Below are positions 10,569 through 34,849 of a stretch of 64,000 bases of DNA, piece by piece. Location of the stretch: positions 100,998,001-101,062,000 of the forward strand of contig OX597822.1 in assembly GCA_951406725.2 (NCBI GenBank), in the 5' to 3' direction. How positions within the stretch are numbered: position 1 is the first letter of the stretch; each line of letters opens with the position of its first letter. A program made the translations under genes and the position numbers. Source of the DNA: Octopus vulgaris. Its lineage: Eukaryota. The notes under the pieces are model-generated. The model did no database searches. It had not been told where the DNA came from and saw nothing but the letters and a program-made list of their open reading frames with translations.

Positions 10569-11266
10569 AGAGCCAACATAAATACTGGTTGTTTTCTCTA
10601 GTTACTCTTTACATGAAAGAGAGAGAGAGCGAGAGAGAGAGAGAGAGAGAGGGCGAGAGAGAGAGAGAAGGGGCGAGAGAGAGAGAGACAGACAGACAAA
10701 GTAAACAAGAGAGGAAGAGAGAGAGAAAGAGAGAGAGAGAGAGAGAGTAAAAGAAAGATACAGAGAAAGTTATAATAAGAGGTGTAGGATGCTTGGTGGC
10801 AGGTAACGAGTAAAAGAACACTATAGGCACACACAAAGTGAAAGAGAATCATAGACAGAAGAGGAGGAAGATGAAAAGGTAGGAGAAGGAGTAAGTGGCA
10901 GAGTATTTATGGCTGGAGTCAGAGAAAATACATCAGCAATTAGCATACTCACGATCGAATCTTCGGAACGTATTAAGAATGAATATATGCGACTTTGTTT
11001 CGTTTTTCTTTTCAATTCTATTTGAAGGTAGAAGATAGTTTCCATTTGAAAATTATTATTCATTTCACCATTTTGCATAAATACCAAGAAATTTGAGATA
11101 AAATTTAAATTATAGTTATTGTACGTATTCAATATTTCCTGAGATGAATATGGTGGCAAAAATATGCTACCAAAGTTACCTGTCATATGATGGGTAACAC
11201 TGTAGCATAACTATAAGTTACTTTTTCACATTATATGACTTAATGTTAAATAGTACAAAAGACATG

Positions 11267-11707
11267 GTATCTTTTCGGTTTGAACGGCAGTTTTTTAAAA
11301 TAATTTCCACGTAACTAAACACTTTTAAACTTCGTATACTGGTAGAATGTATTTATAAAACGTCTTTTTCTCTTAGCTTTATTGAGAAAATTCTATAGTT
11401 TGTAAGATATTTGTTGCTTTTTTCTTCAATTTCTGCAATTTCAACCAATCAATGACGTCTACTGAGGTAAAAAACATTCTGTGCCGTATGAATATGTCCT
11501 TCGTTTAAGAAACAGATTAAGTTTATTTACATTTGTGAAGAAAAAAGATACCCTCCCCCCACCCCTAACCCTAACCCTAACTAACCCTAACTAACCCTAA
11601 CCCTAAAACAGATTGAAATGCAATAGATCGATACTAGGGTCATAATTATGGGTGACAATTTCATATGACACCGCTAGAAAAAACTGCCGTTCAAACCGAA
11701 AAGATCC
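11267..11707 (+). mobile_element. TIR element (MITE) with internal telomeric (CCCTAA)n, copy 1, 11 bp TSD
   Basis: TIR G(G/T)ATCTTTTCGGTTTGAACGGCAGTTTTTT / AAAAAACTGCCGTTCAAACCGAAAAGATCC; CCCTAA repeats at ~11562-11606; flanks CAAAAGACATG at 11256-11266 and 11708-11718. Confidence 0.9.
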
Positions 11708-11885
11708 CAAAAGACATGTATCAGAGAGCTGCACGTTGACAAGATTTATATTATTTAATTGTAATATAGTTAATTAATCATAATAATATGAATAATGAAT
11801 TTGCAAAAACATTTCTAGATTTTGAGTTGAAAGCAATTTGAAGTCAAGAATTTGAAATATTGAGATCAAACTGGGATCAATAGAA

Positions 11886-12059
11886 TATGCTCTTCTATTA
11901 GTGTTTAAAAGATAAAACAAAATATGAAACATAAAAAAGCAGGTCACACAAATATTACGAGAAAACAAGATAACATCACATCATTATAAGGTGTCGGATT
12001 GTCGTTTACAAACGCAAAGTAATAAATAGTTTTGTCTCGGTAAAGAGGAAGTATTACCA
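11886..12059 (+). repeat. left arm of a ~175 bp inverted duplication (partner 14191-14368)
   Basis: TATGCTCTTCT...GAGGAAGTATTACCA is the reverse complement of 14191-14368, with few differences. Confidence 0.9.
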
Positions 12060-12142
12060 GCAATGTATCAGTAGAAATAAATAGTTTGGTTTTATATCAA
12101 AAGAGTTGGTTTTCTATCAAATTGTCTCACTTTGAGTCCTCT

Positions 12143-12290
12143 TTTCTTTATTAGCCACCAGGGCCCAAAATAGAGGGGGACGAAAGAGGACAGACCGGAC
12201 ACCACAGAGGGGACAATACATAAAACGAATATGAACGAGATGATTATATAACAATGAGGTTATGAATGGCTGCATGCGCCTCTCATCACA
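12143..12290 (-). mobile_element. probable LINE 3' end fragment
   Basis: Reverse complement ends ...GTCCCCCTCTATTTTGGGCCCTGGTGGCTAATAAAGAAAA, similar to the SINE-B tail and the 63140-63190 tail. Confidence 0.4.
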
Positions 12291-12332
12291 TGCAGTACCA
12301 TTAATTTTTTTACAGTCCATTTTTATCATGTA

Positions 12333-12730
12333 CTAGCAGTATCGCCCGGCGTTGCTCGGGTTTGTAAGGGAAATAACTATATAAGCATTTTTAGAGAGTT
12401 ATAGCCAAAAAATAGCAAAAACATGCATTAAAAATGGAAAAAAAATGATGGTAAATTTTTTAAAAAATCGTTGACTCATCGTAGACATTTTTAGAGAGTT
12501 ACTTCCCTAATATAATAGCGAAAAAATACATTAAAATGGAAAAAATGATGGTAAATTATTTTTTAAAATCATAGACTCATCGTAGACGCGCGCTAATACC
12601 CAGAAGGGCTCGATATGAATCACGACTATAAGATACCCGGTTTTGGTTAAACTGCACCGCAAAATGTGGGAGTAGTTAGGAATCTAAATCGTAGGAGACA
12701 GACACACAATTTCACTTTTATATATAAAGA
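12333..12730 (-). mobile_element. non-autonomous Helitron (family H2)
   Basis: Reverse complement A|TCTTTATATATAAAAG...CCCGAGCAACGCCGGGCGATACTGCTAG|T; same family as 54273 and 56008. Confidence 0.88.
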
Positions 12731-31678: not shown

Positions 31679-31779
31679 GTTTATATGTTACCTATGAAAA
31701 TAAAGAATAAACTGTTCAGCAACGACTGGATAAGTTGTATCAAATTAATGATATAAAATGGAGATACAAATTAACTATT

Positions 31780-32775
31780 ATGTTCACACTTGACAGTTGT
31801 TTTGATGAGAATGTTCAATCAGTATTCAATGTGTTGTACGTATTCAACAACAGGGAGGATTCTCTTTTCATTTCAAGGCAGTCTAACTTTTCGAACGGCA
31901 TTGTGTATTGCTTTTGCAACAACGTTGTATAGGGAGGTAGTACCTTGATGACATTTTTGGGCAGCTGCTAATCACATGTGTGATGCCTTCCGCGAAAATA
32001 TTTCATAATCTACATTTTCGATTGCATAGTGGAGCTTCAGAAATTTCACTGCCTCTTTTGTTTATTAGGTATTTCGTAGCAGTCTCTTGTTCTTGGATTT
32101 CGAATGCATAACCTTCAAAGTGTGATGCAACAGTTACGAGTGCGAAAGGCTGCACTTCACGTTGATATTACTGTCTTTAAGTCTTTGGGAAACCCATGTA
32201 GTGTTTTCGTTTTTTTGGTACGATGAGCGTTTTACATCCAGGTCTTCATTGAGGTATGTTTGTCAAGCTGTTTATGAGTTGTGTGGGAGATTATCAAGAA
32301 AGAGAGAGAGAGAGAGAGAGAGAGAGAGAGAGAGAGAGAGAGAGAGAGAGAGAGAGAGAGAGAGAGAGAGAGAGAGAGAACATGCTTTCTGAAGAAGCTC
32401 TGCCGACCTAGGATGTTGTTCTCTTCGATTTTCAGCACTAAGTTTATGTATTTAATTTTGTTAGTGATATTTATCAAGTGCTGTTTCAAAGAGACTATAC
32501 GAAATTCGAATGATATCTGTATTGATCTCAAACCTCTGTCTCCTTCATCTCTTCGATATCACTGTCTCTGAGAAAGTTTATGACAGAATCTTGTGGGTTT
32601 CCCCTACAAACCAGTCAAGTATCCCAAATGTTCAAATCAACAGGGGTGTTACAAATACATTGTGTGATATTGTCTTGTAAGTTCCGACTTCCATATTTTT
32701 CGAAGCCTAGTATAATATTCTCGAGTCCCTGTCTTTGCTCACAGAACCTTCGTATGTATGTTTTCATCAATGTCT
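31780..32775 (-). mobile_element. R4/Dong-like (RLE) LINE C-terminal fragment, decayed
   Basis: HNVFVTPLLI*TFGILDW, GDRGLRSI, SHFEGYAFEIQEQETATKYL, CRL*NIFAEGITHVISSCPKMSSRYYL (CCHC). Confidence 0.78.
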
Positions 32776-33122
32776 AGGCATTTGTAGTATGTATGTATGT
32801 ATGTATGTATGTATGTATGTATGTATGTATGTATGTATGAATGAATGAATGAATGTATGTATGAATGTATGTATGTATGTATGTATGTATGTATGTATGT
32901 ATGTATGTATGTATGTATGTATGTATGTATGTATTTGATTTCCTGTTTCCTTGAGTTTCTGTCATGAAATATACCAACGTAGATATGTCTATCTACATAT
33001 CTATATACTTTTTAATGACATACAAATACGGCGGATATATATATATATATCATGTTGATTCGTTAGTTACTGCACGCATTTTTTTTCTCTCCTTCTTTCT
33101 GTGTTTTTTTTCTCTCTGTGTA

Positions 33123-33160
33123 TCTTTCTGTTGAAGAGCGTAGGCTCGAAACGTTAAAGA
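33123..33160 (+). ncRNA. minimal type I hammerhead-like motif (A6>U) in a Penelope-type terminal remnant
   Basis: UCUUU-CUGUUGA-A-GAGC(guag)GCUC-GAA-ACGU-U-AAAGA: stem I UCUUU/AAAGA, stem II GAGC/GCUC, palindromic stem III ACGU; located between (TA)n arrays. Confidence 0.6.
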
Positions 33161-34169
33161 CTTGTTTTATTTATATTTCCTGAGCGCCATACTAATACAA
33201 TTGTTCGTTTTTTTTCCACCTGCCTTCGTCTTTTGTCTATTTTCATAAAGCTTCCTGTTATATATATATATATATGTATATATATATATATATATATATA
33301 TATATATATATATATATATATATATATATATATATATGTATATATATATATTATATATATATATATATATATATATATATATATATATATATATATATAT
33401 ATATATATATATATATATATATATATATATATATATATATATATACACGTACATATATGTATGCATGTATATATATATATATGTGTGTATATATATATAA
33501 ACATATATACGTGCATACACACACACGCATACAAACACACACACACTCAGACACACTGAAACACTGAAACACGCATATTACTAAAACGTTACAGACACGG
33601 CAGACACTGAGCTATCGACAAGACAAAAAGCTGCTTCACTTAATTCTTTGAACTTACCTGGTGACAAACTAAATAGAATTATGTGACGAAATTAATATCA
33701 CAGCATGCGCAAATTTTGTTTTTGTTTGTTAAACTAAATGTACGTATATATTTATGAATGCATGCACGTATGTTCCTATGTACGTATGCATTTCCCAATA
33801 TATGTATGTCGACTATTCAACGCTGTAGCAGACTGTAGATTCGAAGTAAAATTCCAAATTTCAATGCGTATAACTTTAGATCTATTGTGTTTGTTTCGCA
33901 GAATACTTTGGAATTGATTTCAAGGCATCATACTGTCATACATTGTGAAAAATTTATCGAACTGCTAAGGAGACTTGGAAAGATTTGGCTAACAATAGCA
34001 CAATAAATTTCATTCATCTCAGAAGTACATCTACAGTCTGTAACTTAGAAAAGTTTGTCACAAAGATTATTTTATTCAGCTCAGTGTGTATTACAATAGC
34101 GATTGCTAAAATTTAGATATTTGCAAAGGAAAAGTAGGTTGCCGTTCCCTTAGTGCTAGTTGATAATTA

Positions 34170-34584
34170 GGATCTTTTCGGTTTGAACGGCAGTTTTTTC
34201 TAGCGGTGTCATATGAAATTGTTACCCATAATTATGACCCTAGTATCGATCTATTGCATTTCAATCTATTTTAGGGTTAGGGTTAGGGGTGGGGGGAAGG
34301 ATATCTTTTTTTATTCATAAATGTAAATAAACCCAATCTGTTTCTTAAACGAAGGACATATTCATACGGCACAGAATGTTTTCATCTCAATGGACGTCAG
34401 TGATTGGTTGAAATTGCAGAAATTGAAGAAAACAACAACAAATATCTTACAAACTATAGAATTTTCTCAATAAAGCCAAGAGAAAAAGATGTTTTATAAA
34501 CACATTCTACCAGTATACGAAGTTTAAATTTTTTTAGTTACCTAGAAATTATGTTAAAAACTGCCATTCAAGCCGAAAAGATCC
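34170..34584 (-). mobile_element. telomeric-repeat TIR element, copy 3, flanked by a 76 bp direct duplication
   Basis: GGATCTTTTCGG...GAAAAGATCC; (TTAGGG)3 at ~34270-34288; 34094-34169 is repeated at 34585-34660 with 3 mismatches. Confidence 0.92.
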
Positions 34585-34849
34585 CAATAGCGATTGCTAA
34601 AATTTAGATATTTGCAAAGGAAAAATAGGTTGCAGTTCCCTTAGTGCTATTTGATAATTATTATCAGTGAAGTTTTTATTGACAAGAATATTGACATCTA
34701 TAGTTACAAATGTAACTGTTTTGTTTTATTTAAGTCATAGTATCGCATAATCAAAGGACACATTTCATTTGTAATTTACAAGGCTATGAGTACTCGGTCA
34801 TGCTTTCTCTAGTCGTAGTTACTTGCGTTTAAAATATGTCATTTGAGCG

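Follow-up and report, generated by a model that had tools for sequence, protein, structure and literature searches.

The described transposable elements that come closest to the one treated here are those whose target-site duplications (TSDs) differ in length from copy to copy. IS1549 of Mycobacterium smegmatis and IS1634 of Mycoplasma mycoides are flanked by direct repeats of 8-514 bp, for which no mechanism had been proposed as of PMC2266710; both belong to the IS1634 family. A single family of elements in parabasalids, IS481EU, shows TSDs of 4, 15, or 25 bp (PMC10045372). Here, we describe a family of short elements with terminal inverted repeats (TIRs) in a 64,000-bp stretch of the Octopus vulgaris genome (assembly GCA_951406725.2, contig OX597822.1, positions 100,998,001 to 101,062,000 of the forward strand; hereafter the window, with coordinates counted from its first letter). 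An earlier note, made from the letters of the window, had singled out three copies of this element whose flanking duplications differ in length.

A mobile element family with fixed ends

A 29-bp end motif matched the window at six sites with three or fewer mismatches, and at none in 100 shuffles. The six sites delimit three element copies that align over their full length (Table 1). Aligned pairwise, the copies differ by 14 substitutions in 431 bases, 26 in 413, and 19 in 404 (3.2-6.3%), and no further fragments of the family were found in the window. The TIRs are 29-30 bp long, run GGATC...GATCC, and contain one or two mismatches per copy; the termini differ slightly, with copy 1 beginning GTATC and copy 2 finishing GATCG. 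The longest open reading frame (ORF) overlapping copy 1 spans 43 amino acids. An Rfam scan of 9000-35200 returned no family at the gathering score, and the element contains neither a hammerhead nor another Rfam family, the lone chance match (E 4.9) lying outside it. Folded as a single strand, copy 1 (z -4.5) forms mostly the TIR stem, a result that adds nothing. With its TIRs, short non-coding body, and many dispersed copies, the element is a mobile, non-autonomous TIR family with fixed ends, of the kind known as MITEs (for miniature transposable elements with inverted repeats).

Roughly 100 bp inside one end, beside a C-rich run, lies a degenerate and interrupted telomeric tract of 44, 50, and 18 bp in copies 1, 2, and 3, respectively, the last comprising three units. 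The three copies together occupy 1,293 bp, into which fall all five of the telomeric runs of at least two units in the window and 16 of its 32 telomeric hexamers. All three four-G-run patterns of the window likewise lie inside the copies, and even the shortest copy has four G-runs. We read the tract as internal cargo of unstable length, for which a role in targeting or protein binding would be hypothetical. Each copy also contains one set of CCAAT and TGACGTC motifs, whose function would be putative. The TIR includes AACGGCAGTT, which we take to resemble two opposed, putative Myb-type sites.

Table 1. Positions of the element copies, their internal features, and their flanking duplications in the window
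Feature	Position	Strand	Remarks
Element copy 1	11267-11707	+	441 bp; TIRs 11267-11296 / 11678-11707
Element copy 2	13315-13751	+	437 bp; without flanking duplication; final base G, not C
Element copy 3	34170-34584	-	415 bp; same insertion found in organism B
C-rich run and degenerate (CCCTAA)n tract, copy 1	11551-11606	+	G-rich strand fits four-G-run pattern
C-rich run and degenerate telomeric tract, copy 2	13590-13651	+	
(TTAGGG)3 and G-rich run, copy 3	34271-34296	+	Four G-runs kept
CCAAT and TGACGTC motifs	11445-11459, 13490-13504, 34393-34407	+ (11445-11459)	One set per copy
Left 11-bp duplication, copy 1	11256-11266	.	Identical to 11708-11718
Right 11-bp duplication, copy 1	11708-11718	.	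Identical to 11256-11266
Left 76-bp duplication, copy 3	34094-34169	.	Block otherwise unique in window
Right 76-bp duplication, copy 3	34585-34660	.	3 differences from left copy

Flanking duplications of unequal length

Direct repeats flush with the termini agree at 11 of 11 positions around copy 1 and at 73 of 76 around copy 3, and copy 2 has none. Both the short and the long duplication abut both termini exactly, and both greatly exceed what chance would produce. In 200,000 randomly chosen pairs of positions with equal spacing, exact flush repeats of at least 11 bp outside low-complexity sequence arose three times (a rate of 0.001 with microsatellites included), and one of at least 50 bp never. 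The 76-bp block has no other match above 20 bp in the window. At copy 2, no flush repeat appeared under any shift of up to four bases at the ends, and the 400-bp flanks share a single 9-mer, distant from the ends. One short TSD length is not what this small sample displays (11, 0, and 76 bp across all three copies); two of the three deviate from any single short TSD. The footprints given in the earlier note are thus confirmed, as are its three copies with shared TIRs and its internal (CCCTAA)n tract of variable length, although the tract is short and degenerate and the termini are not, as it had stated, the same.

Two further observations concern individual copies. At copy 1, the letters that follow the duplication in the target are GTATC, the same five as in the altered left end, a coincidence that is possibly a single hint of a microhomology junction. 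Copy 2 sits within a 2.48-kb unit (11886-14368) bounded by 178-bp inverted arms (11886-12059 and 14191-14368) that are 95% alike and have TA at their outer edges.

The family and the 76-bp site in related animals

The query 33700-35000 retrieved 24 sequencing runs under five organism labels; four of these runs (X4, X20, X17, and X21) were examined over 33600-34860 at 80% likeness, and the small shares matched in X11-X16 carry no evidential weight. Aligned to the element region were 32,916 records in X4 (organism B) and 13,231 in X20. Summed depth in X4, which is no measure of copy number, was 1.5-6.1 million along the element versus ~50 in the flanks; given that it is of similar order across the whole element, there is no 5' truncation gradient. 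The ends are sharp in both runs: in X4, similarity stops immediately before 34170 in 249 contigs and immediately after 34584 in 110, and in X20 it stops before 34170 in 159 contigs and before 34166 in another 42. In related animals, the family is very abundant and its ends are sharply fixed. End-to-start joints (34584 to 34170) occur in five contigs of X4 and three of X20 at about single-copy depth, indicating that element copies do lie adjacent to one another. Nested-insertion junctions yielded no TSDs, as a left and a right junction could not be attributed to the same locus.

The 76-bp locus itself is filled in organism B. One contig of X4 spans the left flank, the left block, and the TIR (11 of ~590 letters differ), and a second spans the element end, the right block, and the right flank (8 of 301 differ). 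Presence of both junctions in a second species means that the 76-bp copy is not an assembly error. In X20, neither junction at the locus is covered.

The outgroup X17 (organism C) differs at 37 of ~565 letters on the left flank. Its depth is 3-22 in the three end bins versus 27,000-806,000 in the internal stretch 34374-34545, a contrast indicating other repeats that contain the internal stretch and almost none of this family. One record (record 1) carries the left flank and the block up to offset 70, followed by 27 unaligned letters; another (record 8) has 45 unaligned letters and then joins the right copy at offset 71. Over 34589-34631 the depth is 0, and coverage holes in the X17 alignment are not conclusive by themselves. 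On the simplest reading of these records, the outgroup site would lack the element and have the block once, with unrelated letters breaking into it five bases short of its end. With the block single in the outgroup, the duplication would have arisen with or after the insertion. At 34134, organisms B and C both have the base of the right copy, so this difference between the two block copies postdates the duplication.

X17 offers two observations in its own right. The unrelated letters at 34164/34165, five bases from the position of the element, may represent a second insertion at nearly the same site. The internal stretch 34374-34545, with its CCAAT and TGACGTC motifs, is common to abundant repeats with different outer parts, suggesting modular families.

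How the ends may join the target

We favor, with about equal expectation of being right and of being wrong, a reading in which an abundant non-coding element is moved by a transposase encoded elsewhere and its two ends join the target at a variable mutual distance. The transposase, presumably of the DDE type, would be supplied in trans. Its two strand transfers would not be locked in one geometry, whether owing to sequential joining, a looped target, or the landing of the two ends on opposite arms of a replication fork. After fill-in, positive spacing between the joining points would appear as a duplication (11 and 76 bp), and zero or negative spacing would produce a junction that is blunt or has a small deletion (copy 2). 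Each insertion would also spread the telomeric tract as cargo. For comparison, insertions of DNA transposons in rice were as a rule precise (PMC4423477). Whether the footprint of the family is truly variable we consider evenly balanced.

The earlier note had reached a similar position in proposing integration by a non-standard mechanism. That proposal is supported in part: the family is mobile, its ends are fixed, and the 76-bp block is single in the outgroup. Variable length as a rule of the family would be extrapolated from three loci, which a fixed 9-11 bp family with later changes in the flanks would also explain. The further suggestion that the telomeric tract recruits telomere-binding proteins is conjectural. 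The single outgroup block also speaks against the possibility, raised in the same place, that the 76-bp duplication pre-existed. The accompanying premise, that DDE elements with TIRs invariably create short TSDs of fixed length, goes too far, given the repeat lengths of IS1549/IS1634 (8-514 bp; PMC2266710) and IS481EU (4/15/25 bp; PMC10045372). The absence of a visible autonomous partner was borne out: Pfam identified two reverse-transcriptase pieces and one Transposase_1 piece among the 10 ORFs scanned in the window, and none is bounded by element ends.

Several points weigh against variable joining. The sample amounts to three, the only copies with both flanks, and the Pfam scan of the 10 ORFs found no transposase partner in the window. 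Copy 1 alone fits a Mutator-type TSD of 9-11 bp; because the base immediately outside four of the six termini is G, its ends can also be taken as GGGATC, which would make its TSD 9 bp long. The altered terminal base of copy 2 allows that its TSD was perhaps lost to a later deletion. The outgroup site is not clean: at the break, 27 letters on one record and 45 on the other fail to align, and no single contig bridges it. Finally, among the raw reads of X21, which has the same species label as the best-matching run, only 8 of 12.9 million aligned, none of them on the flanks; this scarcity could reflect mislabelling, a different species, or filtering.

A bolder version of variable joining would make the element a member of an unrecognized animal TIR superfamily, a eukaryotic counterpart of IS1549/IS1634 with routine duplications of 0 to tens of bases and very high copy number. 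The four-G-run telomere-type tract and the paired, putative Myb-type end sites would then link insertion to stalled forks or to proteins that bind telomeres. We regard this larger claim as speculative and unlikely.

Alternative explanations

The three loci could also come from an ordinary MITE with a fixed, Mutator-like TSD of 9-11 bp, copy 1 being its normal product and copies 2 and 3 secondary ones. We take this possibility seriously, although we would sooner doubt it than accept it. Copy 1 has 11 bp, the ends start with G, and TSDs are 4-10 bp in IS256/MuDR (PMC10045372) and 9 bp in Mutator (PMC4423477). The 76-bp duplication would follow from sister-chromatid ends inserted nearby (hybrid element insertion) or from a local hop and recombination between copies, either of which would place one element between two copies of the interval, and the bare junction of copy 2 from the reciprocal deletion type or a later deletion. 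Alternative transposition, known for P and Ac/Ds, yields both flanking duplications and reciprocal deletions (PMC3744419), and the end-to-start joints in X4 and X20 show that neighboring landings occur. Such events, however, make up ~0.5-1% even in a favorable maize allele (PMC3744419), and two of three neighboring copies must be exceptions. Most ends break at GGATC/GATCC and, among the nested junctions listed, the letter preceding GGATC varies, which disfavors GGGATC ends with a 9-bp TSD; the loose ends at exactly 34584, together with these varied letters, favor GGATC ends with 11 bp. The secondary route likewise predicts flush junctions and a single ancestral block, so one locus cannot separate a variable footprint from a fixed TSD.

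Copying by nicking and synthesis, through the retro-machinery of Penelope-like elements (PLEs) or long interspersed nuclear elements (LINEs) or through a Helitron2-type HUH enzyme, appears improbable, although both routes can leave duplications of variable length. Variable TSDs are a hallmark of target-primed reverse transcription (PMC7805219), and Penelope-like Naiads are present in Octopus and form inverted ends (PMC8557442). The TSDs of CRe-1, CRe-2, and CRe-3 in Chlamydomonas (none, 7-19 bp, and 44-443 bp) cover a similar range (PMC3627910), but mostly with truncated copies, whereas the octopus copies are full length. The possible microhomology junction at copy 1 is one case in favor. The ends of the octopus element, in contrast, are sharp and symmetric, without a tail or truncation gradient; neither a hammerhead nor another Rfam family is present, and TTTT is absent before the duplications of copies 1 and 3. 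Retro-mobilization as a short interspersed nuclear element (SINE), PLE-derived element, or retro-DNA was set aside, since none of the expected features (a tail, 5' truncation, TIR loss, or a hammerhead ribozyme) is seen.

That the 76-bp repeat is unrelated to the insertion, as an older tandem duplication or an assembly error, is highly improbable: the two blocks do differ at 3 of 76 positions and no single contig spans the outgroup site, but both junctions exist in another species, the block is single in the outgroup, and the element would need to have hit the exact tandem junction.

Occurrence elsewhere and significance

Scans with the end motif gave no match in metagenomes, viral contigs, or prokaryote genomes, and neither the internal motif nor the architecture pattern matched in viral contigs. 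The architecture pattern retrieved five metagenome loci and six genome loci; comparison of all 11 with the non-telomeric parts of the element yielded nothing beyond one 18-bp match (E 0.22). The six genome loci have no inverted partner, L001, L002, and L004 proved on inspection to be repeat-rich chance matches, and L003 and L005 are other inverted-repeat structures without a flush duplication. On metagenome contig L003, a 326-bp element (1197-1522) has 43-bp inverted arms that include CCAAT, an internal TTAGGG-type tract, and no flush duplication. It was found by a pattern that demands a telomeric tract and otherwise has no sequence in common with the octopus element. Telomeric cargo is therefore not unique to the octopus family. 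L005 contains a 103-bp foldback (777-879) with GATCC and GGATC within its arms, beside a CCTAAC-rich tract.

The family is probably undescribed at this level. Our literature search, which did not extend to Repbase Reports or most subscription journals, returned no account of it or of any GGATC-ended family with variable TSDs. Repbase holds unclassified "DNA-X" families from marine invertebrates, and a database entry for the element may exist. Among the repeats annotated for Octopus vulgaris in 2026 are 123 TIR families left unclassified (PMC13282606), and the octopus element may be one of them; the supplement does not mention TSD, telomere, or GGATC, and the text examined discusses neither these nor footprints.

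If a variable footprint is the rule of the family, the TSD-length test of annotation pipelines breaks, and such families would be missed or misfiled. The family would then provide natural insertions by the thousand for studying how a transposase makes long, variable duplications, a question that work on bacteria has not answered, and every insertion would leave behind a small local duplication and a short tract of telomere type. Should the TSD prove fixed instead, the element is a MITE of the ordinary kind with a single flank rearrangement that is instructive.

Other repeats in the window

Several other repeats share the window. A 420-bp family (12322-12742, 54262-54700, 56006-56419, and 7433-7565) has 100-bp repeats in its interior and, close to one end, a hairpin with CTAG after it, and we take it to resemble a putative non-autonomous Helitron. 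Inverted arms of 101 bp, 96% alike (57097-57197 and 58315-58415), enclose a 1.3-kb unit. Two SINE-like copies of 391 bp (9210-9600 and 30654-31042) are 98% alike, and a separate repeat of 8-10 bp flanks each of them. On the reverse strand at 1990-3714 are decayed, transposase-like reading frames without a Pfam match, which presumably resemble Chapaev-type proteins. A direct duplication of 185 bp (35771-35955 and 36881-37065) is 98% alike, its second copy lying between (TA)n tracts. A (GAT)n-rich stretch with an Asp-rich frame (39713-40059) adjoins a 630-bp (ATA)n array (39068-39696).

Comparison with known systems

Canonical Cryptons have no TIRs and end in 4-6 bp terminal direct repeats (PMC3212892), whereas the octopus element has TIRs. 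The Dfam table lists Crypton-V with a count of 363 and no description, none of its entries mentions a TSD, and we found no literature on CryptonV with terminal inverted repeats. Kolobok elements make a TTAA or 3-5 bp TSD (PMC9587614), which the flanks do not match. In the PHIS group (Harbinger, ISL2EU, and Spy), with no TSD or 1-4 bp (PMC10045372), only copy 2 would fit. PMC12810828 was a false lead as a precedent, as its variable TSDs belong to a LINE. Mutator-like MITEs have G-starting TIRs and a TSD of about the size seen at copy 1 (PMC4423477, PMC10045372), but copies 2 and 3 do not fit, so that a Mutator-like element (MULE) TSD of ~9-11 bp describes one of three copies.

Hybrid element insertion and alternative transposition of P and Ac/Ds can leave an element flanked by a duplication or deletion of arbitrary size (PMC3744419), although as a rare side reaction of families with fixed TSDs rather than a family rule. 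The CRe elements, assigned to Helitron2/Fanzor1, show the same spread of footprints (PMC3627910) but have asymmetric short inverted repeats, hairpins, 5' truncation, and a TTTT target, whereas the octopus element is symmetric and untruncated. With symmetric, full-length ends and no TTTT before its duplications, it does not fit Helitron2/CRe.

The systems that opened this account are, with the CRe elements, the closest precedents. IS481EU elements are eukaryotic TIR elements with non-autonomous members and several TSD lengths per family. Those lengths are discrete and the ends read TG..CA or TNT..AYA, in contrast to the 11, 0, and 76 bp and GGATC..GATCC of the octopus element; by both termini and TSDs, it falls outside IS481EU. 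IS1549 and IS1634 are bacterial and autonomous, measure 1.5-2 kb, and have ends that begin with C, and the comparison is one of description, not homology. They are moved by a transposase and have inverted ends and direct repeats that vary from copy to copy; the octopus element, with its inverted ends and 11 and 76 bp in two of three copies, would resemble them if variable repeats are the rule of its family.

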